NCBI GenBank assembly: GCA_035543015.1
Contig: DATKKG010000061.1
Span: 2,065-66,064, forward strand
Source: Conexivisphaerales archaeon
Lineage (GTDB): Archaea > Thermoproteota > Nitrososphaeria > Conexivisphaerales > DTJL01
Length of the DNA: 64,000 bases
Direction of reading: 5' to 3'
The notes beneath the pieces were generated by a model that saw only the letters and a program-made list of their open reading frames with translations, searched no databases and was not told where the DNA came from. The translations under genes and the position numbers were made by a program. Position 1 is the first letter of the stretch. Every line of letters begins with the position of its first letter. Shown in pieces: positions 11,221 through 22,882 of the stretch.

Positions 11221-12114
11221 TCACCCATCTTTGGGCTTCTGAATGCCGGCGGCCACGTCGGGAGCCTCGGTCACGACCTCCGTGCTCTCCTTGTGCTTGA
11301 GCGGGTGGGTCGGCTCGGGCTTGTCGAGAAGCTTGGTCAGACGCAGGTGCTGGCTGGTGCCACCCCGGCGCACCTTGATCACTTCGGCCATGATAGAGAT
11401 TGCTATCTCCTCCGGGGTTTCGGCCCCGATGTCGATTCCGACGGGGGCGTAGATCTGGAAGAGCCTGTCCGCTGGGATCCCTTCCTTCAGGAGTTCCCTG
11501 TAGGCGGAGTTCACGCGGTTCTTGCTCCCAATCATCCCTACGTAGCGCGCCTTGGTGTCGAGGACCGTGCGAAGGGCCTCCGCGTCGTACCTGTGCTCCG
11601 TTATGACCAGGATGTTGTCATAGGCGTTGATCTTGACCTCCCTGATCTTCTGGAGCACGTCCTGGGTGTAGACCTCGGCGTTCGGGAACGCCTCGACCGA
11701 AGCGAACGGGTCCAGGACCATGACCCTGTACCCGAGCATCTCAGCCAGCTTGTAGCATGCCCGGGAGATGTTCCCTGACCCGAATATGATCAGTCTCTCG
11801 CTGGGCTCCACGAGCTCTAGCGCGACCTTGACGGTGCCGCCGCAGGCCATCCCCAACCCGCTCCAGCTTTCATCACCGAGGTTGAAGTCCTTAATCCGGG
11901 TCTGGCCGTCTTCGAAAACGAACCTGGCCTCACGCACGACGTACTTCTCGACGCAGCCCCCTCCGATGGTCCCAACGGTGGGCCCAGCCTCGGGGATGAT
12001 CATCTTTGTGCTCACGCCCCTCGGGACTGAGCCGTCAGCCTCTACGACGGTGGCGATGACTAGCCTCATTCCGTCCGCCAACATGCGGGACGCGATGGTG
12101 TAGATGTCTTCCAT
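11221..12114 (-). CDS. XdhC/CoxI-family accessory protein
   Basis: 297 aa. N-terminal XdhC domain (ATVVEADGSVPRG) plus Rossmann-like LIIFGSGNISRACYKLAEMLGYRVMVLDP. Confidence 0.8.
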   Translation of the reverse strand: MEDIYTIASRMLADGMRLVIATVVEADGSVPRGVSTKMIIPEAGPTVGTIGGGCVEKYVVREARFVFEDGQTRIKDFNLGDESWSGLGMACGGTVKVALELVEPSERLIIFGSGNISRACYKLAEMLGYRVMVLDPFASVEAFPNAEVYTQDVLQKIREVKINAYDNILVITEHRYDAEALRTVLDTKARYVGMIGSKNRVNSAYRELLKEGIPADRLFQIYAPVGIDIGAETPEEIAISIMAEVIKVRRGGTSQHLRLTKLLDKPEPTHPLKHKESTEVVTEAPDVAAGIQKPKDG

Positions 12115-12130
12115 TGCCTATGAACCCCCC

Positions 12131-12427
12131 TCAGTCCCACCTTTGCCCGCAAGGGCCGATGGCAGGCAGGGGCTTCTCGGCCATCTTCTCGGGGGATCTC
12201 TTGACGATCAGGTGGAAGTCAGCACCTTCCTCTCTGGAGTTCATGATCTCCTGGCCGTGGTTCCAGCAGTACCTCAGGACGTTGTCCTTCGAAGTGTGGT
12301 CGTTGACGACGATCTCAATGACGGTGCCCATCTCCGCCTTCTCGATAGCCCTCTTGGTCATCAGGATGGGCTTGGGGCAGGGTTCGTCCCTCGCGTCAAC
12401 GAGGACTTGCGTCGTAAGCACGCACAA
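12131..12427 (-). CDS. tusA: TusA/SirA-family sulfurtransferase
   Basis: 98 aa. DARDEPCPKPILMTKRAI carries the CPxP active-site motif. Confidence 0.85.
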   Translation of the reverse strand: MCVLTTQVLVDARDEPCPKPILMTKRAIEKAEMGTVIEIVVNDHTSKDNVLRYCWNHGQEIMNSREEGADFHLIVKRSPEKMAEKPLPAIGPCGQRWD

Positions 12428-12671
12428 TAGTAATCGCGCCTATTTACGTAGTAGCTGCTTTAAAACGTTATCCACGGCGACCTATAGGTGATAAGTACAA
12501 TAATGATTCGGTCGCTGACGGGCGTTGCGGCTGGACGAAATGCGAGCCCCCCGATCACGCAGGAACTGGAACTCGCATTCATCTGCGCGGGGCGTCCTGG
12601 TACTTACCGTCTCGGCCTTCCACTTACAATATTAATATAGCGCGGAGGAGCTCATCCCGTTTCAGAACACC

Positions 12672-13868
12672 ATGCTCAAGCGGGTCATGCCAAGCAAGTC
12701 CGCCGCGACGGACTTCTTCATCATACTCGCCACCGTCGTGGCACTGACCTTCTACATCTACTCCGCCTCCGGCATATTCGTCGGTGTGCTTCTTGCGGTG
12801 CTCTTCGGGGCGTTCACCTGGGCACTTCTGAAGTCCACCAAGCCGTACCGCGTAAGGTCCGTCTACGTTTTCGGCCTGACCGCCGCAACTTGGATCGCGT
12901 TCTACGCATTCATTTCCCAGCTGGGCCCATCCTACCTGGGGAAGTGGCTGGCCACACACCAGAGGGTACCGCTGACCCCCGACCCCATAACCAACAGCGG
13001 CTTCGTCTCCATCCTGTGCCCGTACCTGCTCCCGACCGCTTTGGGGAAGCCGGTGACGGTGCAGGTCCCCGTCTACATCAAGTTCTTCTCGTCTTTCCCC
13101 CCCAGCATAGGCACTTTCTCCGTAATCTTCCTGGCTTACCTCGGCACCGCCTTCGTCCTGGGCAAGGGCTGGTGCGGCTGGCTGTGCCCCTTCGGCGGTC
13201 TGGGCGAGACCGTCCGCCAGCTGCACAGGCCGTTCAAGTTCTACACGAAGTCGGTCAGCCGGATCAAGAAGGCCTCCGCGAAGAGGGGGGTCAACCTGGA
13301 GGGACAGGAGCAAAGCCAGATGCTCCGCGACGTGAAGTACGCCTTCCTCGTCGTCACCCTTCTTCTGGCGCTCGTCTACACGGTCCAGTGGTTCTGCGTG
13401 TTCTGCTGGGCCGGCGTTCTCGGATGGTTCGCGTCACCCTTGAACTTCGACATCTTCGTGGCCATCCTGGCCGTGATCTTCCTGGGCCTGCCCTTCATCA
13501 GCACCAAGAAGTGGTGCCACTCCATTTGCCCTATAGGGGCCGGACTGAGCATGATGGACGGGGGGACGCCGTTCCAGATAGAGATCGACGAGGAGGCGTG
13601 CAACGAGTGCTACGCCTGCCTGAACGTCTGTCCGACGTTCGGATTCGCCCGGAAGGCTGACGGGGCGATTTACGTAACGGACACCTGCGATAAGTGTCTG
13701 GTCTGCCTCTACAAGTGCCCCAGCAAGGCGATCGAGCTCCACTTCTACAACATCAAGACCGACGCTAAGAAGTTCCTCGTGCCGAGCGTCACCGTCCTTG
13801 GGGCGTTCTGGTTCTACTGGTTCATAGTCGTGGTCTACAACCTTCTAGTGCTGGGGGTGTTCCACTGA
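12672..13868 (+). CDS. NapH/MauN-like membrane polyferredoxin
   Basis: 398 aa. Polytopic N-terminal half with GKGWCGWLCPFGG. Two CxxCxxCxxxCP motifs (CNECYACLNVCP, CDKCLVCLYKCP). Confidence 0.8.
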   Translation: MLKRVMPSKSAATDFFIILATVVALTFYIYSASGIFVGVLLAVLFGAFTWALLKSTKPYRVRSVYVFGLTAATWIAFYAFISQLGPSYLGKWLATHQRVPLTPDPITNSGFVSILCPYLLPTALGKPVTVQVPVYIKFFSSFPPSIGTFSVIFLAYLGTAFVLGKGWCGWLCPFGGLGETVRQLHRPFKFYTKSVSRIKKASAKRGVNLEGQEQSQMLRDVKYAFLVVTLLLALVYTVQWFCVFCWAGVLGWFASPLNFDIFVAILAVIFLGLPFISTKKWCHSICPIGAGLSMMDGGTPFQIEIDEEACNECYACLNVCPTFGFARKADGAIYVTDTCDKCLVCLYKCPSKAIELHFYNIKTDAKKFLVPSVTVLGAFWFYWFIVVVYNLLVLGVFH

Positions 13869-14557
13869 TGCTGGACCTCCTCGCTGCGGGCCTGCTGCTC
13901 GGGCTGAGCAGCGGGATACAGTGCTCCGTCGCCTGCCTTCCTCTCCTGCTGACCCAGCTGACGGGAGGAAAGACCACGCCCGGGGAAGGCGTCCGCATAG
14001 CCCTGCTGTTCTCGGTGGGCAGGCTTCTGGTCTACTTCTTCGTCGCGTACGTCCTCTTCTATTCGCTGGGCTTCTTCGGGACGGCGCTGCGGAACCCTCT
14101 GTCTGAGTCGCTCTCCTCCCTGCTCCTCGGTGTCATAATGGTGTACTACTGCTATAGGGCCATGTTCAAGAGGGGGAAGGCCGCGTGCAACACGGGCATC
14201 CAGAAGAGGCTAATCAGGCTACCGTTCACCTCCGTGGCGCTGACTGCGAAGCCCGGCAGAAACGGGACCTCCCTTCTGCTGGGTGTCATCTCGAGCCTGA
14301 ACGTGTGCCTGCCCCTGGTCGCGCTCATTTCACTGTCGGCGTTGACGAACCTGGGGGCAACGTTCGCCTCGGTCTCGATGTTCTGGCTCGGGTCATCCGT
14401 CTACTCGTTCGGGCTGGCCCTTATGATGGCGGGGGCGGCGCGGATCAGGATGGGGGCTGCGCTCCGAAGGCGGGTGGGCTTCATAGGGAGCCTCTCCGGC
14501 ATGATGTTCGGCGCCTTCCTGGTTCTGGCGGGGATCGCTTCTCTGGCGCCCCTCTAG
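13868..14557 (+). CDS. polytopic membrane protein (DsbD/CcdA-like, tentative)
   Basis: 229 aa with about 6 hydrophobic segments. N-terminal GIQCSVACLPLL Cys pair. TGATG overlap with the upstream polyferredoxin gene. Confidence 0.6.
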   Translation: MLDLLAAGLLLGLSSGIQCSVACLPLLLTQLTGGKTTPGEGVRIALLFSVGRLLVYFFVAYVLFYSLGFFGTALRNPLSESLSSLLLGVIMVYYCYRAMFKRGKAACNTGIQKRLIRLPFTSVALTAKPGRNGTSLLLGVISSLNVCLPLVALISLSALTNLGATFASVSMFWLGSSVYSFGLALMMAGAARIRMGAALRRRVGFIGSLSGMMFGAFLVLAGIASLAPL

Positions 14558-15006
14558 AAGAGCCTCTGGAAGACGTTGATGTAGTTCAGCATCACGAACT
14601 GAAAGAAGAGGATGCCGACGTAGAAGCCGACGAGATAGACTATGGCCGCCCCGTTGCCTGTCGTGGCGTTCACGTGCTGCCTCAGCGGGCATCCCTCTGC
14701 CATCACGGAGAAGAAGGCGTAGCCGAGGCCCCCTATGGCTGCCAGGATTATCGTGGCGATCGAGCCTGCGCCTGGCTCGTTGTGAAGCATCAGCGGGAAG
14801 TCCGCCATGTGGGGGGCGAACCTGAAGAAGAGCAGGTAGCCGACCAGAGCCCCCAGCGCCATGCCGATGATGGTCCTCATGAAGAGGGTGTCCTTGAAGA
14901 GGTAGAGGTCTCTGTAGCCCGAGATGGAGCAGGACTTCGACCTCTGCCACAGGTAGCCGATCACGCCCCCGGCGGCCAGAGTTGCGAGGCCTATCTCAAG
15001 CGTCAA
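14554..15006 (-). CDS. YeeE/YedE-family membrane protein, second half-size paralogue
   Basis: The family-like sequence (LTLEIGLATLAAGGVIGYLWQRSKSCSISGY) begins at a TTG at 15006. That TTG overlaps the TGA of the upstream half (TTGA). The rest of the long track ORF is Arg/Pro-rich shadow. Confidence 0.7.
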   Translation of the reverse strand: MTLEIGLATLAAGGVIGYLWQRSKSCSISGYRDLYLFKDTLFMRTIIGMALGALVGYLLFFRFAPHMADFPLMLHNEPGAGSIATIILAAIGGLGYAFFSVMAEGCPLRQHVNATTGNGAAIVYLVGFYVGILFFQFVMLNYINVFQRLF

Positions 15007-15470
15007 AACCTGACCCTCCACTTGAGGTAGTTGACGGAGATTACAACTCCAGTGAGCATCCCCGCCAGGCCGATGAGGGCGATCAGGCTGCCATACATCA
15101 CGGCCATTATGATGTGCACCGAGCAGTAGCCCAGCGTCAGCCCGAACAGGGCCACGAAGAAGCCGTTGATGAAGTGGTCCACGGGGTGGCGAGGCATCCT
15201 GAAGTTCCACTCCTTGTTGCGAAAGGTGGAGATGCTGGCTCCTATCAGGACGCCCACGACCGTGAGGACAGGTATGTCGACGGAGGGGTCGTGCACATAG
15301 AGCGTCGTGCCGAACAGGTGGTTCACCGTCCAGTCGATCAGGTCGCTCGGGTGGCTGATGAAGCATATCCCGAAGGCGGACGGAGGGGCCACGTAGAACA
15401 CGGCCTGGGCGATGGCCGCCCATAGGCCGGTCACGAATCCCGCTGTGAGCTTGTCAACCTTCAAGACCAT
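15003..15470 (-). CDS. YeeE/YedE-family membrane protein, first half-size paralogue
   Basis: 155 aa, 4 hydrophobic segments, conserved Cys context FGICFISHPSD. Confidence 0.75.
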   Translation of the reverse strand: MVLKVDKLTAGFVTGLWAAIAQAVFYVAPPSAFGICFISHPSDLIDWTVNHLFGTTLYVHDPSVDIPVLTVVGVLIGASISTFRNKEWNFRMPRHPVDHFINGFFVALFGLTLGYCSVHIIMAVMYGSLIALIGLAGMLTGVVISVNYLKWRVRF

Positions 15471-15475
15471 AACAC

Positions 15476-16348
15476 CTAGACAGTGTCCACCACCTTGCGG
15501 ACGGCAGGCCCAAGGTTCTTGATGATCTGGAAGACCTGGGTCGACGGATCGGGGTTGGTCATCTGCCCGGCCAGGCGGTTCGCCCTTCCGGCGATGACGC
15601 AGGCCTTTACCGGCTCGTATCCGCCCGATATGAGAGCGGACACCATACCCGTGATGGTGTCGCCTGTGCCACCGATGGGCTCCAGGGCGGGGATGTTCGG
15701 CTCTGAGATGGTGCTCACGACCTTGCCGTTGTCGACTATGAAGTCCACCGGACCCTTGATCAGCATGTAGCGGGGCGCGTTGCCGGACGCGTAGGCCTGG
15801 TCTATCAGCTTGGGCACCTGCGTCGTGTCTATCTCGAAGAGCATCGACTTCACGTAGGCCGGGTGGCCGGCCTCCGGGTCAGCGAGGAAGCAGATCTCGC
15901 CGGCGTCGGGGGTGAAGAGGTCGAACTTCCTGCAGGAGCCCGTGGCCTTGGCGATGAGCATGGAGCCCGCGTCCGCGATCATGAAGGGCCTCTTGGGCCA
16001 GTAGTCGAGCATCTCGACGAACTCCATGAAGGGCTTCCGCAGCGGCAGGATGTAGTGCATGGTCAGGGCGGAGGCCCCCAGTGAAGCGGCCTTCTCAGTC
16101 AGGTAGGTGTACAAGGACGCGGACCCGGTCCCTTGGCCGAGGTCGCCAGCTATGGCCCCGACCGGAGGCTCCATGCCAAGGGACTGAGTGCAGGTGGCCG
16201 CCGCGGCCATCATGGCCATGGCGCCGATTGACCTGAGCTCCTTCGGGATCTTCGTTTCGCCCAGGGAGATGGTCTCGCCGTCATACCGTATGGTGCCGGC
16301 CAGCACCTCCTTCTCCTCTATCGGCATCGTGCCGGAAAGCAGGAGCAT
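15476..16348 (-). CDS. ribokinase-fold protein, NAD(P)HX dehydratase (YjeF C-terminal)-like
   Basis: 290 aa. GGTGDTITGMVSALI and FTPDAGE resemble NnrD motifs. The N-terminal 80 aa are atypical. Confidence 0.6.
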   Translation of the reverse strand: MLLLSGTMPIEEKEVLAGTIRYDGETISLGETKIPKELRSIGAMAMMAAAATCTQSLGMEPPVGAIAGDLGQGTGSASLYTYLTEKAASLGASALTMHYILPLRKPFMEFVEMLDYWPKRPFMIADAGSMLIAKATGSCRKFDLFTPDAGEICFLADPEAGHPAYVKSMLFEIDTTQVPKLIDQAYASGNAPRYMLIKGPVDFIVDNGKVVSTISEPNIPALEPIGGTGDTITGMVSALISGGYEPVKACVIAGRANRLAGQMTNPDPSTQVFQIIKNLGPAVRKVVDTV

Positions 16349-16936
16349 CTACTTCATCTTCCTCCAGGCTGCAAGGGCGGCTTCGTAGGCCTTCTGAAGC
16401 GTGTAGGCGCAGAGGGTGAAGCCCAGCTCGTTGGGAGACACGACCTTGTCCAACGGCTGGCCGATCATCTTCAGGGCAAGCAGGGGGATGTCAGGACAGC
16501 CTCCGCCCGAGATGTTGACTATCGTCCCCGTCTTCTTGTTGAAGGTCAGCTTCATGTTGCCTACCCTGATCATGAGCCACTCGCCGAAGTCAACCTTCTT
16601 GATGAGCTTGCTGACCTGCAGAGGAGGGAGGTCTCCTTCGGAAGCGAAGACGACGTCCAGTATCGGGATCCCGTCGGCCCTGAGGACCTTCTCCGCCGCG
16701 TTCACTTGGTTGCTGGGCACCGACATGGCGATGTCGCAACCGGTCCTGACTTCGGGGGGAGGGGCACCAGCCTTGGTATCGAAGCCGGCACGCTTGAGGA
16801 CATGTTCGGCCCTCATGGCGTCCCTGAACAACTCGAACAAGAAGAGGGACCTGGAGAGGCCGTATTCGTCTGTCCGCTTGGACGGTGTGGACATCGGGTC
16901 GCTCGACAAGTCATCTACTGCGTATAATATAATCAT
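16349..16936 (-). CDS. DUF3343-like (putative S/Se carrier) domain protein
   Basis: 195 aa. LFLFELFRDAMRAEHVLKRAG...CDIAMSV resembles DUF3343. The stop abuts the start of the next gene (TAGATG). Confidence 0.55.
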   Translation of the reverse strand: MIILYAVDDLSSDPMSTPSKRTDEYGLSRSLFLFELFRDAMRAEHVLKRAGFDTKAGAPPPEVRTGCDIAMSVPSNQVNAAEKVLRADGIPILDVVFASEGDLPPLQVSKLIKKVDFGEWLMIRVGNMKLTFNKKTGTIVNISGGGCPDIPLLALKMIGQPLDKVVSPNELGFTLCAYTLQKAYEAALAAWRKMK

Positions 16937-16999: not shown

Positions 17000-17479
17000 T
17001 CATTCGAAGGCCTCCGCCTCCCCGTCCAGGCCCACGATGACATCCGCAAGGGCGGTGACCCCAGCCACCAGGGCGGGCGTGGGCCTCCCCTTCATCTTCC
17101 TCACCTGAACGCCCAGCAGCATTATCTTCGTGCCCTTGAGGTCCTGTGAAATGACTTGGGCGACAACCGCCAGCGGGAACTTGTGGACCAGGAAGGCCTT
17201 CGTTTCCTGTTTCAGGAGGTCCTCCAGCACCACCTCCCCCGGGCCGAGGCTGCGGTCCACCGCGTTAGCCATCAGGATCACATCGGGGTGCGCCTCGATG
17301 ACCTCGGGAAGGAACTTCTCGGGCGTCGTCTCGCACAGGATCGGCCTTATGTTCGCCACTCTCTTCTTGATCTTCCTAAAAAGAAGGGGGCCAGCGACGT
17401 CGTCCCCCCAGTCGCTGCCCACGCACATGACGAGCGTCCGCCGGCCCTTGACGAGCCGGCGAATCTCTTCGGTATCCAT
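17000..17479 (-). CDS. [NiFe] hydrogenase maturation endopeptidase
   Basis: 159 aa. LVMCVGSDWGDDVAGPLL resembles the GxGNxxxxDDGxG motif. Last gene of the hydrogenase structural cluster. Confidence 0.75.
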   Translation of the reverse strand: MDTEEIRRLVKGRRTLVMCVGSDWGDDVAGPLLFRKIKKRVANIRPILCETTPEKFLPEVIEAHPDVILMANAVDRSLGPGEVVLEDLLKQETKAFLVHKFPLAVVAQVISQDLKGTKIMLLGVQVRKMKGRPTPALVAGVTALADVIVGLDGEAEAFE

Positions 17480-17492
17480 TGGTGAGCTACAG

Positions 17493-18359
17493 TCAGGCGG
17501 TCTGGGCTTTCGGGGCTATTTGCTTTTCGTCCTCCAGCAGGGCGTTGTACATGGTGACGAAGTTGTACGAGAACGGGCAGACCCCCGCGCAGAGGTTGCA
17601 CTGGGTGCATGTCGCCAGCTGTTCGGACAGGTACCGGAGCTCAATTGGGGTGAACTTCCTCGTCCTGCGTATCTGGTAGTACTTCCTCAGCTTGAGGACC
17701 GGAGCCTCCATGGGGTCCCTGTTGAATGCCTCGTAGGTCGGGCAGACCTCGACGCACCTTCCGCACTTGCCGCAGGCGGATGCGAAGGCAAGCATGTTGG
17801 TCCTGCTCTCGTTCTTGGTGAACCTCCAGTAGAGCGTGGCTATGCCGTGCCTGACGGCCCCTCCCGCGAAGAAGGAGACCACCAGCCAGGCATAGAGTAT
17901 GGGGAGGTGCAGCGAGCCGAAGAAGGCCAGCGCAGGCGCACCGAAGCTCTGGAGGGTAATGATTCCCAGGACTTCAGACAGCTGTACGAGCCCGACGGCG
18001 GCGAACGCCAGCATGAAGACGAAGTCGAGCCAGAAGACCCTGCCGTAGGCGACCCTGAAGTATGGGTTCCTGAAGTACCTGATCGTCAGCCCTATTCCTC
18101 CTGCCAGGATGAGCAGGCCCGTTATGCCGTGTATCCAGGAGAGAACCCATCCGTTGCCCCCGAACACGTCTGCCGTGCCCGTGAGCATGTAGGGGACCTC
18201 CATGAGGATGCCCGTTATGATGTTGCCCCAGAGGCCGAGGTGGAAGACGAAGTCGCTGTAGCCCACCGTGAAGCTCCTGGAGAACAGGAGCTGGAGCAGC
18301 CCTGGCTTCTTGGCCTGCAGCGACGACAGCTTGTACTTTGCTTCCTTGCTCTTTGCCAT
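17493..18359 (-). CDS. hydrogenase-associated membrane protein: polytopic His-rich domain fused to 2x[4Fe-4S] ferredoxin domain
   Basis: 288 aa with about 5 hydrophobic segments, then CGKCGRCVEVCP and CTQCNLCAGVCP. NarI/DsrM-plus-ferredoxin-like by eye. Confidence 0.75.
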   Translation of the reverse strand: MAKSKEAKYKLSSLQAKKPGLLQLLFSRSFTVGYSDFVFHLGLWGNIITGILMEVPYMLTGTADVFGGNGWVLSWIHGITGLLILAGGIGLTIRYFRNPYFRVAYGRVFWLDFVFMLAFAAVGLVQLSEVLGIITLQSFGAPALAFFGSLHLPILYAWLVVSFFAGGAVRHGIATLYWRFTKNESRTNMLAFASACGKCGRCVEVCPTYEAFNRDPMEAPVLKLRKYYQIRRTRKFTPIELRYLSEQLATCTQCNLCAGVCPFSYNFVTMYNALLEDEKQIAPKAQTA

Positions 18360-18360
18360 G

Positions 18361-19284
18361 CTACTTCACCTTCTCCTCCTCTGGTTTGACGACCATGGGC
18401 TTCTCCTGCTTGCTGTCACGCCATCTGAGGGCGAAGAACGCCACACCCGCCAGCAGGGGTATCCAGGCGAGCCTCACCCACTCCTCGGCGGTCGACACCA
18501 GCCTGTTGGTGCTCGGGTAGGCGGACTTCACGACCGTCACGTCGGACGAGGCAGACATCGTCTTGAACTCGTCGCCGGTGAGGACGTAGAAGGTCGACGT
18601 GTCGTTTTGATACAGCATCGTGGCTCCATTGCCCAGTGCCGTGACAACCTTCTGTCCCATCGAGACCATGTCGGAGGTGGAGCCCCAGTTCTTCGCGAAG
18701 GTCGTCAGGCTCGCTGCCTTCAGCGTCTGCGCCGTCGGGCCGCCTCCAGGGCAGACCTGAACGCAGAACGGACTGGTCTGTCCGTCCTCCGTGAAGTTGA
18801 CGCAATGGTCGCACCTCAGGATCTTCTTGTTGGCGTTGTCGGTGGTTATCGAGCCGAAGGGGCAGACCGAGGTGCAGAGGAAGCAGCCGATGCACCTGTC
18901 TTTGTCGTAGGTGACCGTCCCCGACGGAAGCTGGGTGAGGGCGTGCGACTGGCACACCGTTACACATGGTGCGTCGTTGCAGTGGAGGCAGTTCTGGGGA
19001 ATGGGCAGGGTCTGGTTGGGGCCCGCTGTCGCCACCTTCGTGTAGGGGTTGAAGCTGGGGTACTGGCCCCTGAAGGCGCTCAGGTCGGGCTTGGCCTTTC
19101 CTTCATGGTACTGGGTGCAAGCCTCGACGCAGTGATCGCATCCGATGCAGTTACCGACCACTATCAGCATGGCCCTCGACGGGGTGTTCGCTCGCACTAT
19201 CCTGGGGGCCGTGGCCGCCGTGACCACGACGAGCCCGCCGCCGGCCGCGGCGGTCTTCAGGAATGTCCTTCTATCCATCTTCAT
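18361..19284 (-). CDS. Tat-signal four-cluster ferredoxin (HybA/DsrO/PsrB-like) with C-terminal membrane anchor
   Basis: 307 aa. Twin-arginine leader MKMDRRTFLKTAAAGG..VRA. Four Cys cluster motifs. C-terminal WIPLLAGVAFFALRW. Confidence 0.85.
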   Translation of the reverse strand: MKMDRRTFLKTAAAGGGLVVVTAATAPRIVRANTPSRAMLIVVGNCIGCDHCVEACTQYHEGKAKPDLSAFRGQYPSFNPYTKVATAGPNQTLPIPQNCLHCNDAPCVTVCQSHALTQLPSGTVTYDKDRCIGCFLCTSVCPFGSITTDNANKKILRCDHCVNFTEDGQTSPFCVQVCPGGGPTAQTLKAASLTTFAKNWGSTSDMVSMGQKVVTALGNGATMLYQNDTSTFYVLTGDEFKTMSASSDVTVVKSAYPSTNRLVSTAEEWVRLAWIPLLAGVAFFALRWRDSKQEKPMVVKPEEEKVK

Positions 19285-19285
19285 C

Positions 19286-20698
19286 TCAATTCCCTCCTAT
19301 GACCTTGCGGACGCTTCCATCCTCGTTCACCAGCTCCACCTTCAGTGCCCTTTCGAGGTGCGTCGCGCAGGAGATGCAGGGATCGTATGCCCTGATGACC
19401 AGGCCCACTTCGTGCCACAGCAGGTCCTCGTTGACCTTCCCCGGGCTGACGTTCCGGTTGGCGGCGCTCCAGAGGGAGGCTTCGAAGCCATTGGCGTTGA
19501 TCACCGTCGGGGTGATGATGTTGGCCTTCGTGATGAAGCCCTGGTCGTCCCACTTGTAGTTGTGGATGACCGTGCCCCTCGCGGCCTCGCACGAGCCGGC
19601 GCCTTCTCCGGCCTTCATCTTGAAGGGTGTCTTCAACTCTCCCTGGCATATGGTCGGATCGGACAGCAGCTGCTCCAGGCGCTCTGCGGCGAAGACGAGG
19701 TTCACGTACCTCGCGAGGTCGTACTGCAGGGTGCCGTGCACCGGGTTGCCGTACTTGCCCCTGAGCTCCTTCAGAAGCCTGTCGGCCACTTCCGTGCCCA
19801 TCCCCTTGTTGACGTTGACGCGCGCGAGGGGGCCGGTCCGTATGAACGCCCTCTCCTTGGGCTGGCCCTTGACCGTGACGCTCTTTCCGTAAGAGTAGGA
19901 AAGCGGTTCCTCGACTATCTGGTTGAGGTAGTCAGGGGCGTTGAACTCGGAGATCTTGGCCCCGGTCTTGTCGACGATGTTGATCGTCCCCTGGTAGAAG
20001 TTGACGTTGCCTCCGTTGCTCATCCCGAAGTATCCCGACTCCACTTTGCCCAGCTCGATGTTGTCGTCCACGAACTTGTTGAAGATCGGGGCGATGGCGG
20101 CGTCGTACCAGCCTATGACGTTCTTCTTCGCCTCCTGGACGTATCCCAGGAGCTTCTTCCGCATGTCTTCGTCGAAGCCCCTGTTGATTCCGCCGGGGAC
20201 TGCCGTCATGGGATGCACCGCCTGGACGCCGATGGTCTCGATCACCTTCTGGCCGACGGCCCTGGTGTAGACCACCTGCTTTGCCACCTCCGGGAACTTC
20301 CTGTAGACGCCGATGATGTCGCGCTGCGTGTAGGGAAGCTCGGGGAGGAGGAAGTCGGGTCCCGCGAGGATGAACGTATGAAGCGTATGGTCGCCGAGGA
20401 TCTCTCCCATCAGCATGAGCTCCCTCAGCTTCTCGGCTCGCTCCGGTATCTCCAGGCCGAGTCCGTTGTCGATGGCCTTGGCGCTGGCCAGGTGGTGAGG
20501 TATCGGGCAGACGCCGCATATCCTGGTTACGATGATGGGAGCCCTGTGGACCAGCCTGCCTTCGAGGAACTTCTCGAACCCTCGGAATTCGGCGAAGTCC
20601 GCCATCGTGCGGGTGACCTTGCCCTTCTGGTCGAGCTGCACCTTAACGGTGAGGTGCCCTTCGATCCTTGTAACTGGGTCGATTTCGATCTGGCTCAA
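19286..20698 (-). CDS. [NiFe] hydrogenase large subunit
   Basis: 470 aa. RIEGHL near the N-terminus. RICGVCPIPHH and C-terminal DPCISCATH Ni-ligand motifs, plus a ~23-aa processed tail. Confidence 0.95.
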   Translation of the reverse strand: MSQIEIDPVTRIEGHLTVKVQLDQKGKVTRTMADFAEFRGFEKFLEGRLVHRAPIIVTRICGVCPIPHHLASAKAIDNGLGLEIPERAEKLRELMLMGEILGDHTLHTFILAGPDFLLPELPYTQRDIIGVYRKFPEVAKQVVYTRAVGQKVIETIGVQAVHPMTAVPGGINRGFDEDMRKKLLGYVQEAKKNVIGWYDAAIAPIFNKFVDDNIELGKVESGYFGMSNGGNVNFYQGTINIVDKTGAKISEFNAPDYLNQIVEEPLSYSYGKSVTVKGQPKERAFIRTGPLARVNVNKGMGTEVADRLLKELRGKYGNPVHGTLQYDLARYVNLVFAAERLEQLLSDPTICQGELKTPFKMKAGEGAGSCEAARGTVIHNYKWDDQGFITKANIITPTVINANGFEASLWSAANRNVSPGKVNEDLLWHEVGLVIRAYDPCISCATHLERALKVELVNEDGSVRKVIGGN

Positions 20699-20704
20699 GC
20701 TATG

Positions 20705-21193
20705 TCAACCTCCGAGGATGTCGCTCAACAGCTCCCTGATGACCGGGCCCGGTGGGGGGCAGCCCGGTATCACGTAATCCACCTTTACGTGTTTGGAAAG
20801 TGGCTCGACCTTGTCCAGAAGCTCGGGAACGCCTTGGGTAGGGGGGTGGCCGTCGTACGCTCCCTCGAGCAGCTCCTCCTTGGTGAACAGGTTCCCCAGG
20901 CCCACGAGCCCGGCCGTGCTCGGGCAGGTCCCGAAGGACACCAGGATCTTGGATTTCCTCCTAGCCTCTTGCACTCTTTCCAGCTCGTGCTTAGTTCTGA
21001 CGGTGCCAACAACGAAGGTGACGTCTGCTTCGTCGAAATCATGGGCGCTCGACAAGATGGGGGCGTAGACAAGGTCCACGGTCTTGTCAAACACCTTCAG
21101 CAAGGGAACGCCGAGATCAGCCAAAGCGATTTCACATCCGCCGCAGATGGCACAGTCTTCGATTGCGAGTCTTGCTTTAGCCGCCATAGCCAA
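20705..21193 (-). CDS. [NiFe] hydrogenase small subunit (minimal, proximal cluster only)
   Basis: 162 aa. Motifs CAICGGC, GTCPSTAG and PGCPP. Only five Cys in total. No signal peptide. Confidence 0.85.
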   Translation of the reverse strand: MAMAAKARLAIEDCAICGGCEIALADLGVPLLKVFDKTVDLVYAPILSSAHDFDEADVTFVVGTVRTKHELERVQEARRKSKILVSFGTCPSTAGLVGLGNLFTKEELLEGAYDGHPPTQGVPELLDKVEPLSKHVKVDYVIPGCPPPGPVIRELLSDILGG

Positions 21194-21390: not shown

Positions 21391-21921
21391 ATGCGGTTGC
21401 CGTCCACCAAAACGATCGCCCTGTCGGTCGCAGGGGTCGTCCTGACGTACGTCCTTACGTACTATACGATGCCGTATCAGTTCGGCATAGTCATCGCGTT
21501 CCCCCAGGTGGGGGTCCTGCTTGCGGCCTGTGCGGGAGGCCCCCTCTGGGGGGTCCTCGCAGGCGCGGTAGGCGGGCTGGCGTTCTACTACTCCGGCGCA
21601 GGCACGATATGGCTCTACGAGTTGATCCCGCTAGGGCTTGGGGCCGGCCTGCTCGCCTACAGGTTCAGGGCGTTCGCCGCCTCGATGCTCTCCTGGGTCA
21701 CCCTCGGCGTCATGTTCTCCTACTACGCCTATTCGCAGGAGTCGCAGACGAGCCAGGCACTGTACTCCTGGCTCATAACGGGCTCGTACGAAGTGGCGAT
21801 TGCGGCGGTTGTGGTCGACGTCGTGCTCACGCTCCTCCACATTTCACGCGTGCGGCCGAAGAAAGCGGCCGCCGAGAAGGAGACGGCCCGGTCAGAAGCT
21901 CAGACAGAGATCGGCCTCTAG
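21391..21921 (+). CDS. polytopic membrane protein, unknown function
   Basis: 176 aa, 5-6 hydrophobic segments, charged C-terminal tail. Confidence 0.6.
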   Translation: MRLPSTKTIALSVAGVVLTYVLTYYTMPYQFGIVIAFPQVGVLLAACAGGPLWGVLAGAVGGLAFYYSGAGTIWLYELIPLGLGAGLLAYRFRAFAASMLSWVTLGVMFSYYAYSQESQTSQALYSWLITGSYEVAIAAVVVDVVLTLLHISRVRPKKAAAEKETARSEAQTEIGL

Positions 21922-22242
21922 CATCTTCCTGCTGATATCGGCCCTCTTGGCCACGGCGAAGTCCGGAGCGAGGGTGGACTGGTCGATCCCCTGGTCCCGC
22001 AGGGACTCCTCCTCCACAAGGAACTTCTTCCCATTCTGCTCGGGGAAGAACTCCAGGAACTTGGTGGCATACATACGGTCGACTCCCTTGACGGCGCAGC
22101 GGGCCCCCTTTCCGATGAAAGCCACCGTAACCCTGTGGTCTTCATCGCCGCTCAGCATCCCTGCGGAGACCCGGAGCCCCTCGACGAAGTAGGCGCTGCT
22201 CACCGGAGACCTCATGAAGATCACCAGTATTTCCCTGGGCAT
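21892..22242 (-). CDS. DsrE/DsrF (TusC)-like sulfur-relay family protein
   Basis: 116 aa. ILVIFMRSPVSS..EGLRVSAG pattern of the DsrE/F fold. Third gene of the trio. Confidence 0.6.
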   Translation of the reverse strand: MPREILVIFMRSPVSSAYFVEGLRVSAGMLSGDEDHRVTVAFIGKGARCAVKGVDRMYATKFLEFFPEQNGKKFLVEEESLRDQGIDQSTLAPDFAVAKRADISRKMLEADLCLSF

Positions 22243-22255
22243 TCCACCATCTCTC

Positions 22256-22516
22256 CTAGAGGAAGTTCACGACCTTCTCGGCCTCCATCATGGAAACCAG
22301 CCCGGCGAAGTCGATGGGGTGTGCCCCCTGAGGGAACGAGTCGCCGAGCCCCCGCGAAATGGCGTCCTCCCCGATGTAGTAGACCTCTCCCTTGAACAGG
22401 CTACGCTTGGCCAAATAGACACCGTCCTGCAGCAGCACGACCTTGGCTGAGGGGTCGTAGGCAGCGTAGGCGAAGGCCAGGTCAGCGTACGGCTCGTCGA
22501 CGAGGTAGATCGCCAA
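22256..22516 (-). CDS. DsrH (TusB)-like protein
   Basis: 86 aa. The VVLLQDGVYLA motif is typical of DsrH/TusB. Confidence 0.65.
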   Translation of the reverse strand: MAIYLVDEPYADLAFAYAAYDPSAKVVLLQDGVYLAKRSLFKGEVYYIGEDAISRGLGDSFPQGAHPIDFAGLVSMMEAEKVVNFL

Positions 22517-22528
22517 CCCAATCTCCCC

Positions 22529-22882
22529 CTATATGGTGACCAGCCTGTCGACCTTGCTAGCCAGGCCAGCCACGAAGGCCACGCTCACTATCTTCACTCC
22601 CTTGTAGTAATCCTTCCCTTCATCCAGGCCCCTGTTGTAGCTGCAGACCTCGCAGGCGTAGATTTCGGCGCCCTTGGCCAGGAGCGCCTTGAAGTAGTCC
22701 ATGGGAAGCTTCTGCAGGACGGGAAAGACCTGCGTTCCCAGAGCGTTGTATATGCCATCCAAGAACAGGAAGAACGTGACCTTGTCGGACCTGTCCAGGG
22801 CGGCGTCGGCGATGCGGCACGCCGTCTGCCAACGCTGGCTCTGAAGCGGTCCGCCTGTCAGAATGATGCCGAACTCTGTCAA
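22529..22882 (-). CDS. DsrE (TusD)-like sulfur-relay protein
   Basis: 117 aa. FGIILTGGP N-terminus and YACEVCSYNRG, the active-site Cys context. Confidence 0.75.
   Translation of the reverse strand: MTEFGIILTGGPLQSQRWQTACRIADAALDRSDKVTFFLFLDGIYNALGTQVFPVLQKLPMDYFKALLAKGAEIYACEVCSYNRGLDEGKDYYKGVKIVSVAFVAGLASKVDRLVTI

Follow-up and report, generated by a model that had tools for sequence, protein, structure and literature searches.

A group 3-derived [NiFe] hydrogenase with a one-cluster small subunit and a predicted modular transmembrane electron wire in a Conexivisphaerales archaeon

The DNA analyzed here, referred to as the window, is a stretch of 64,000 nucleotides from a Conexivisphaerales archaeon (assembly GCA_035543015.1, contig DATKKG010000061.1, positions 2,065 to 66,064 of the forward strand). 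At positions 17000-21193, it contains an operon of five co-directional open reading frames (ORFs) on the minus strand, separated by intergenic gaps of 1-13 nt, that encode the small and large subunits of a [NiFe] hydrogenase, a four-cluster ferredoxin, a membrane subunit, and a maturation endopeptidase. Sequence comparisons indicate that this operon probably specifies a cytoplasm-facing hydrogenase of group 3 derivation, connected to a modular electron wire across the membrane. The parts are of known kinds, and the assembly they appear to form seems to be an undescribed one; no description of this architecture was found in the full-text literature. All five ORFs lie where they had been placed by an initial annotation of the window, which had been made from the sequence alone. 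Homologous loci are cited below by L numbers, genomes by G numbers, and contigs by C numbers.

The large subunit (470 amino acids (aa); 19286..20698) bears the NiFe ligands C61/C64 in RICGVC and C441/C444 in DPCISC, and the longer motifs first noted in it, RICGVCPIPHH and DPCISCATH followed by a tail of ∼23 aa, are readily seen in the sequence. It matched PF00374 (2.7e-33). Given that its best matches were VhuA among the NCBIfam models (335 bits against an 800-bit cut-off) and MvhA among solved structures (5odc_F, 321 bits), whereas the group 1 models for the Hyd-1 and Hyd-2 large subunits scored only 87-92 bits against cut-offs of 969-1101, the window enzyme is, by sequence, a [NiFe] hydrogenase of group 3 ancestry. 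Comparison with the membrane-bound uptake enzymes of group 1, the frame adopted in the initial annotation, is thus not supported. Group 3 hydrogenases, as characterized so far, are cytoplasmic, and we know of no Tat (twin-arginine translocation) signal in this lineage. The 23 residues that follow DPCISCATH (19289..19357) are presumably cleaved by the protease of the operon (159 aa, HycI/FrhD-like; 17000..17479), such cleavage of a C-terminal tail being an established step of [NiFe] maturation. The protease scored 46.8 bits with TIGR00142 and 45.4 bits with TIGR00072, in both cases just short of the cut-off (47.45 bits for the latter). The operons of L004, L006, and L017 likewise include a protease-like gene, whereas in L019 an ORF of 163 aa, protease-like in size as judged by eye, lies beside the operon in divergent orientation.

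The phylogeny of the large subunit was examined in a tree computed by maximum likelihood from the 120 top-scoring database matches and the hydrogenase paralogues of the window genome, in which groups 3a, 3b, and 3d were represented only by the genome's own 3b-like outgroup. Here, the window protein was placed in a distinct clade of 43 rows (Shimodaira-Hasegawa approximate likelihood ratio test support of 100; stem 0.44) that holds each of the eight loci with a gene context established before the tree was made and that includes an Anaerolineae member, L011. The sister of this clade, with 79 rows, contains the MvhA of the same genome together with enzymes of Methanocella, Methanobacterium, and Methanomicrobiales; the window large subunit therefore does not fall inside the MvhA/VhuA clade of this tree. 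Three [NiFe] hydrogenases are encoded in the window genome, namely that of the window operon, a canonical Mvh whose small subunit of 320 aa is encoded on contig C80 together with MvhD, HdrA, and HdrBC, and a group 3b-like enzyme of four subunits on contig C27. MvhAGD/VhuAGD of group 3c (5odc) is the closest known system for the large subunit and for the N-terminal domain of the small subunit; the NiFe and proximal ligands match, and in both systems the large subunit ends in a C-terminal extension and a protease is present. By contrast, the window small subunit lacks the domain of the medial and distal clusters (162 aa, compared with ∼290-320 aa for MvhG), neither MvhD nor HdrABC is encoded at the window locus, and the partners there are membrane and exported proteins.

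The small subunit (20705..21193) is a minimal protein with the proximal [4Fe-4S] domain only. Its sole Pfam match was PF01058, and its five Cys residues at positions 14, 17, 20, 90, and 145, together with the want of a signal peptide, agree with what had been annotated. The proximal cluster ligands C17, C20, C90, and C145 are invariant in eight homologues, whereas C14 varies. The protein spans positions 1-164 of the 286 of the VhuG model, aligns with the N-terminal 150-165 residues of the solved VhuG/MvhG proteins (110 bits), and ends 17 residues past GCPP, which is the boundary of the proximal cluster domain. As read from its sequence, it can house only the proximal cluster. Small subunits with one cluster have already been solved in group 3 (7t2r_E and 5xf9_C, 179-189 aa), and these align with it from end to end. 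The reading frame is closed 13 codons 5' of the start, so a leader cannot fit before the small subunit. Given that the same operon occurs in another Nitrososphaeria genome (L004) with a small subunit of 164 aa and a large subunit 66% identical to that of the window, the short length is a conserved property and not an artefact of assembly or frameshift. A longer or frameshifted small subunit was ruled out by the closed frame and by the recurrence of lengths of 162-177 aa in L004, L008, L011, L018, L019, L027, and L028.

The initial annotation had proposed that the Tat signal and the medial and distal clusters, both carried by the small subunit in characterized membrane-bound uptake enzymes, had moved to another polypeptide. 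Group 1 small subunits are marked by a Tat signal, a C-terminal anchor, and three clusters; in the window protein, no RR motif and only five Cys residues were found. Moreover, when the C-terminal 160 aa of the MvhG protein of the same genome were compared with the membrane subunit and the ferredoxin by phmmer, no similarity was detected (E ≥ 0.18), and relocation of the medial/distal domain onto a partner was rejected on this result. The group 3 ancestry, the null comparison, and the one-cluster precedents together leave the proposed transfer unsupported, and the lack of similarity in either partner implies that an MvhG-type C-terminal iron-sulfur domain was lost and functionally replaced rather than moved. 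In its short small subunit, the window enzyme is like HoxHY of group 3d (5xf9) and the Acetomicrobium NiFe-HydABCSL enzyme (7t2r), with small subunits of 179-189 aa. It differs from these enzymes in that no diaphorase (HoxFU/HydABC) is encoded in the window operon or its flanks, and its electron partner is a membrane protein.

Two reports describe divergent group 3 enzymes under the same name. “Group 3e” was coined for a divergent group 3 branch in metagenome-assembled genomes of Desulfobacteria, where the enzyme was called periplasmic (PMC9723726), and also for Anaerolineae enzymes placed next to 3c/3d, with a small subunit and no recognized electron transfer subunits (bioRxiv 10.1101/2021.08.23.457424). 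Neither paper describes a membrane subunit, a ferredoxin, or a topology of the kind considered here. Either “group 3e” could overlap with the window clade, the comparison being one of descriptions and not of sequences. A two-gene “type 3 cytoplasmic hydrogenase” of Pyrodictium delaneyi also appears in the literature.

The protein that would form the wire is the membrane subunit (288 aa; 17493..18359), in which a transmembrane domain of four helices (residues 36-171; 17847..18254) precedes a two-cluster domain (residues 190-270; 17550..17792) with the motif CxxCxxCxxxCP twice, at C196-C206 and C251-C261. The protein matched Fer4_8, ends 27 residues past the second cluster motif, and in the Pfam scan gave no match to PF02754 (CCG) or Nitrate_red_gam; the description of a His-bearing polytopic domain joined to two cluster motifs, with no CCG domain, therefore stands. 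It has exactly four His residues, at positions 40, 77, 151, and 171, which lie in helix 1, helix 2, and, for the last two, helix 4. In a full-length alignment of 25 homologues, H40 and H77 were invariant, H171 was nearly so, and H151 was present in 22; all four are also kept in the distant clades of the archaeal L019 and the bacterial L011. These residues are putative ligands of two haems b. The count of Lys and Arg residues is seven at the N terminus, zero in loop 1, four in loop 2, zero in loop 3, and four after helix 4. By the positive-inside rule, this predicts that both termini lie inside and that the iron-sulfur domain is cytoplasmic. H40 and H171 would then be situated toward the inner side of the membrane, with H77 and H151 toward its outer side.

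An AlphaFold2 model of the membrane subunit (predicted local distance difference test score (pLDDT) of 73.5) was compared with known structures by Foldseek. The best match was mycobacterial EtfD (9ojn; probability 1.0, TMq 0.59), with a weak E value of 0.043, followed by NarI with probabilities of up to 0.98 and E values of at least 0.5, which are likewise weak and apply to a model of this pLDDT. EtfD and NarI have a membrane haem-b domain with electron input from the cytoplasm, as is predicted for the window protein. The window protein is distinguished from EtfD (742 aa, with CCG domains) by its four helices, by a different distribution of His residues, and by the lack of a Nitrate_red_gam match. 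In more distantly related proteins, this membrane domain is joined to Fer4_8 and two CCG domains, one of these proteins also matching Nitrate_red_gam; among the profile relatives, P0284 and P0169 bear Nitrate_red_gam and/or CCG domains. A further relative, P0168 (820 aa), joins a four-helix membrane domain to a GltD-like Fer4_20/pyridine-nucleotide-disulfide oxidoreductase and an additional ferredoxin domain. CCG and GltD-like modules are taken to be cytoplasmic, so that these fusions agree with the predicted topology of the window protein, and the membrane domain looks like a socket for varied cytoplasmic redox modules. The family appears to be rare, given that only 14 clusters were recovered at E ≤ 1e-30 when 1.84 billion representative proteins were searched with its profile; among sampled genomes of the phylum, 2 of 401 encode the subunit, and within the order it is encoded in 5 of 36 genomes, each of which belongs to the genus of the window. 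In another genome of this genus (G413:C3:223906-224770), the orthologous gene is split into two pieces by an in-frame TAG, which may reflect either a pseudogene or a sequencing error.

The structural matches also bear on a quinone-coupled variant of the system, in which the EtfD/NarI-like subunit would reduce quinone or accept electrons from quinol and the ferredoxin would serve a second, quinol-linked branch. EtfD, NarI, and the relatives with Nitrate_red_gam or CCG domains belong to families that interact with quinone or phenazine. Genes for UbiA-family prenyltransferases are neighbors of the hydrogenase genes in L008 and L019, and the window genome encodes CydA, a subunit of a quinol oxidase. 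Set against this, the quinone markers MenD and MqnA/D were not found in the 88%-complete window genome, a quinone site is not recognizable from the sequence of the membrane subunit, and its constant pairing with an exported redox partner (see below) is most simply explained by through-transfer. On balance, quinone coupling is considered unlikely.

The third component, the ferredoxin (307 aa; 18361..19284), is of the HybA/TtrB/HmcB/DsrO type and contains 16 Cys residues in four cluster motifs. Its Pfam match was Fer4_11, and it matched the NCBIfam models for HybA (2e-23), TtrB, HmcB, and DsrO with values from 1e-20 to 2e-23; none of these matches reached the equivalog cut-off. Residues 1-32 (19189..19284) resemble a twin-arginine signal peptide, with MKMDRRTFLK, a hydrophobic stretch, and VRA; the Pfam TAT_signal model gave 19.0 bits, under its cut-off of 22.7, and the RR motif is kept in the orthologous ferredoxins of L004, L008, L011, L017, L027, and L028. 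At the C terminus, residues ∼270-290 (18415..18477) form a hydrophobic segment, LAWIPLLAGVAFFAL (hydropathy 2.25), which is followed by the basic tail RWRDSKQEK and which shares by eye a W-x-P motif with the transmembrane helix that leads from exported domain to small subunit in fused relatives. The protein is accordingly predicted to be Tat-exported and tail-anchored, with its basic tail in the cytoplasm; TatC is encoded in the window genome. Sequence motifs and family matches thus agree with the earlier observation that a Tat leader and a C-terminal anchor occur only on this HybA/DsrO-like ferredoxin. A second Tat-leader ferredoxin (283 aa) is encoded in the window genome (G000; C40:49698-51766) with a polytopic protein of 406 aa that is NrfD-like by eye; no adjoining ORF there was recognizable by eye as a catalytic subunit.

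Two groups of known complexes provide useful comparisons. E. coli hydrogenase-2 (HybOABC, group 1c) has, as in the window, a HybA-type ferredoxin with its own Tat leader and anchor. The window differs in that its large subunit is not of group 1, its small subunit is devoid of a Tat leader, of medial and distal clusters, and of an anchor, and its membrane subunit does not resemble the NrfD-like HybB; in addition, the catalytic dimer most likely lies on the cytoplasmic side. In the transmembrane redox complexes of sulfate reducers (DsrMKJOP, Hmc, and Tmc) and in HdrED/HmeCD, an exported ferredoxin like DsrO or HmcB occurs with a cytochrome b-type membrane protein and a Fer4_8-type cytoplasmic module, so that iron-sulfur proteins flank a haem-b protein on its two sides; a similar set is predicted for the window. 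Compared with DsrK, HmcF, and HdrD, the window lacks the catalytic CCG domains, which the hydrogenase seems to replace, and it has neither an NrfD-type subunit nor a cytochrome c. A related locus is found in G357 (L025, G357:C13, 5373-12721), where the ferredoxin-membrane pair occurs with a separate CCG protein and no hydrogenase, a substitution that counts in favor of the wired arrangement. There, a Tat-leader FMN_bind protein and ApbE follow, and the locus is divergent from a Tat-ferredoxin and an aldehyde ferredoxin oxidoreductase (AFOR) gene.

A survey of homologous operons revealed that a core of three genes is kept while the exported partner varies. A membrane subunit of ∼280-312 aa lies beside the large subunit and a small subunit of 162-193 aa, or a fused one, in 11 of 12 distinct loci; the twelfth is interrupted by a contig end, so that the core is complete in every uninterrupted hydrogenase locus. 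The one partner that is always present is therefore the membrane subunit with its cytoplasmic iron-sulfur domain. An exported redox protein is encoded beside the core in every complete locus, and its identity differs. The tail-anchored Tat-ferredoxin occurs in the window, L002 (assigned there from ORF size and position only), L004, L008, L011, L017, L027, and L028. The first gene of the set in L006/L007 encodes a PhsA/PsrA-like molybdoenzyme with a Tat leader (408 bits to PhsA); genes for a 442-aa fusion protein and a TorD-like chaperone come after it. In the archaeal L019 (9536-12088), the genes after those of the hydrogenase and membrane subunit encode, in the ferredoxin's stead, a cytochrome c with 13 haems (460 aa), which has an N-terminal hydrophobic signal or anchor and no RR motif, and a 3-haem protein of 319 aa; further multihaem proteins are encoded upstream, together with the UbiA-family gene.

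AFOR genes form another set of neighbors. In L027 (122-6416) and L028 (114-6416), the operon consists of a Tat-ferredoxin, AFOR, an anchored Tat-ferredoxin, and the membrane, small, and large subunits, and AFOR genes also lie beside the core in L010/L011, L008, and L026. The AFORs at these loci and in L025 have no signal peptide of their own and adjoin Tat-leader ferredoxins, with the qualifications that no RR motif was found in the ferredoxin next to AFOR in L026 and that the corresponding ferredoxin of L010/L011 is truncated by the end of the locus. Because the AFOR of L027/L028 shares an operon with a Tat-ferredoxin, its export is implied. No AFOR was found in the window genome by tblastn. 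No molybdoenzyme adjoins the window operon; the molybdoenzymes of the genome lie on C67 and C10 with ferredoxin-like matches of their own, and a TorD-like match is adjacent to that on C67 as well.

Gene fusions place the small subunit relative to the exported domain. The L006/L007 fusion consists, in order, of a leaderless ferredoxin domain, a transmembrane helix, RKRKR, and a small subunit domain. In L017, the small subunit has 488 aa and comprises a signal-like hydrophobic N terminus, a domain of ∼280 aa, a transmembrane helix, RKRK, and the small subunit domain. A database search with the L006 fusion returned nine clusters of ferredoxin::small subunit fusions, without a Tat leader, and a further eight or more that are built like the L017 protein; the gene context of the former was seen at one locus, L006. 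The junction common to all ∼17 clusters reads ...QWAPWI...(transmembrane helix)...ARKRK...LKLAIVDCAICGGC. Among the L017-type proteins (L017:5538-7004 and P0337-P0344), small subunits of 442-502 aa begin with a ∼280-aa domain, the fold of which is not known, and a transmembrane helix that precedes the small subunit domain; six of eight clusters start with a hydrophobic, signal-like segment, and several have CYCH near the N terminus.

Given that a transmembrane helix and a basic run precede the small subunit in ∼17 clusters, the small subunit would be cytoplasmic, on the side opposite the exported domain, provided that one topology holds across the whole clade. This evidence bears on the choice between the two models advanced in the initial annotation. 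Of these, a cytoplasmic hydrogenase wired to an exported ferredoxin is favored both by the fusions and by L019, and the same evidence speaks against hitchhiker export, in which the small-large dimer would leave the cell with the Tat-ferredoxin, H2 would be oxidized outside, and electrons would flow inward to the cytoplasmic iron-sulfur domain and an acceptor such as sulfur-relay proteins. Partner-borne Tat signals are established for [NiFe] large subunits and for PsrB/DmsB-type proteins, such a layout would conserve energy as a classical redox loop, and sulfur-trafficking genes (DsrE/H/F, TusA, and YeeE) flank the operon. Nevertheless, L019 keeps the core with no ferredoxin, and because its cytochrome c is presumably exported by the Sec pathway, which cannot move a folded passenger, hitchhiking is most improbable. 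It would also go against the cytoplasmic location of the characterized group 3 enzymes and would leave the cytoplasmic iron-sulfur domain without a dedicated partner.

The arrangement that we infer for the wired cytoplasmic hydrogenase, including the docking of the small subunit, the binding of haem, and the actual flow of electrons across the membrane, is as follows. The large subunit and the one-cluster small subunit would sit at the cytoplasmic face of the membrane, where the proximal cluster would exchange electrons with the two C-terminal [4Fe-4S] clusters of the 288-aa membrane subunit. Two haems b on the four His residues, one near each face, would carry electrons across the bilayer. 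At the outer face, the Tat-exported, tail-anchored ferredoxin would link the wire to an extracytoplasmic redox partner. The complete path would thus run from the NiFe site through the proximal cluster, the two clusters of the membrane subunit, the inner haem, the outer haem, and the four ferredoxin clusters to the outer partner. Each end has precedents, with electron transfer from cytoplasmic iron-sulfur clusters to haem b in NarGHI, an outer ferredoxin in FdnGHI and HybA, and iron-sulfur proteins at both faces in Hmc and DsrMKJOP.

Several observations count against such a wire. The docking of the small subunit on the iron-sulfur domain is argued from gene co-occurrence only. Structural support is moderate, in view of the model pLDDT of 73.5 and the E values for EtfD (0.043) and NarI (≥0.5); the placement of His residues in helices 1, 2, and 4 (twice) differs from the NarI pattern, and His151 is substituted in 3 of 25 homologues. 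No outer catalytic partner was identified in the window genome, and none is encoded in the operon. Outward electron flow from cytoplasmic H2 oxidation wastes membrane potential. Finally, δ-aminolevulinate dehydratase (ALAD, HemB) and porphobilinogen deaminase (HemC) are absent from all five genomes of the host genus, and ALAD is also absent from other genomes with the membrane subunit, namely those holding L004, L002, L001, L005, and L011, and from G357. Haem would therefore need to be scavenged.

The haem supply is relevant to a further possibility, namely that no electrons cross the membrane at all. Here, the membrane domain would be a haem-free anchor, the fused iron-sulfur domain would serve cytoplasmic clients such as persulfide carriers, and the ferredoxin would serve another enzyme. 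The missing haem synthesis genes of the host genomes fit this, as does the gene order that the window shares with L004 for the Se/S-carrier, the kinase-like protein, and YeeE. However, four His residues lie at matching depths in the distant archaeal (L019) and bacterial (L011) clades, no complete locus lacks an exported redox protein beside the core, nine clusters have this protein fused to the small subunit, and the window genome encodes CydA (cytochrome bd subunit I; C40:72288-73760), which shows that haem proteins are in use. Both ALAD and porphobilinogen deaminase are present in three of four genomes from sister genera of the family. The pattern suggests haem auxotrophy with scavenging in the host genus. 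Scavenging of cofactors is plausible because CydA, which depends on both haem and quinol, is present despite the missing synthesis markers, and the same pattern was obtained with control genomes of Lactococcus and Bacteroides, which are haem auxotrophs. A system without transmembrane transfer is thus regarded as highly improbable.

If the wire operates, the direction of flow may depend on the outer partner. In the outward direction, H2 would be oxidized inside and an acceptor reduced outside, at the expense of the membrane potential. Potential-driven unfavorable reductions are known from the succinate:menaquinone reductase of Bacillus and the thiosulfate reductase of Salmonella, and the PhsA/PsrA-like and multihaem partners fit the outward direction. 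If instead a donor of lower potential than H2 sent electrons inward, membrane potential would be generated through a redox loop. Exported AFORs would fit this direction, since aldehyde/acid couples lie near -580 mV; L027, L028, and L010/11 are the candidates, in which cytoplasmic protons would be reduced. On a broader and doubtful, although possible, interpretation, these loci define a previously uncharacterized class of respiratory hydrogenases that need no quinone pool, composed of a cytoplasmic group 3-type enzyme, a dihaem/iron-sulfur wire, and interchangeable exported oxidoreductases, with AFOR members running an inward redox loop and PhsA/PsrA-like or multihaem members running outward. 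Were this so, the former would carry out a “proton respiration” that dispenses with the ion-pumping modules typical of group 4, and the latter would be one-complex H2:sulfur-compound or H2:mineral reductases.

In the prevailing scheme, group 1 hydrogenases face outward and are quinone-linked, group 3 enzymes are soluble and cytoplasmic, and group 4 enzymes are membrane-bound and ion-pumping. The clade described here would break this correspondence of group, location, and coupling, in that one-cluster group 3 subunits would form the cytoplasmic head of a transmembrane wire whose outer end is exchanged among ferredoxin, molybdoenzyme, exported tungsten-type AFOR, and multihaem cytochrome. Hydrogen and membrane energy could thereby be coupled in a manner not seen before. 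A functional wire would offer a testable route of H2-linked extracellular electron transfer in archaea and Chloroflexota and, possibly, a redox-loop form of energy-conserving H2 evolution. Surveys that label such genes “F420-non-reducing hydrogenase”, as JGI names do, would in that case assign the wrong physiology.

The surroundings of the operon contain several genes related to sulfur trafficking, and these hint at sulfur compounds as the partner chemistry. A DsrE/DsrH/DsrF-like trio lies upstream of the operon (window 21892-22882), and XdhC, TusA, and a 398-aa NapH-like (Fer4_5) membrane polyferredoxin are encoded downstream (window 11221-13868). DsrE-like and NapG/NapH-like genes follow the hydrogenase in L006. 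The region downstream of the hydrogenase at window 14554-16936 has its counterpart at L004:9601-13011, where Se/S-carrier-like, NAD(P)HX-dehydratase/kinase-like, and two YeeE half-genes occur in the same order, the split of YeeE into two genes of ∼155 aa being common to both. Directly upstream of the hydrogenase operon in L004 (1418-5415) is a three-gene set of the CoxSLM type (xanthine dehydrogenase family), whereas only XdhC is encoded nearby in the window.

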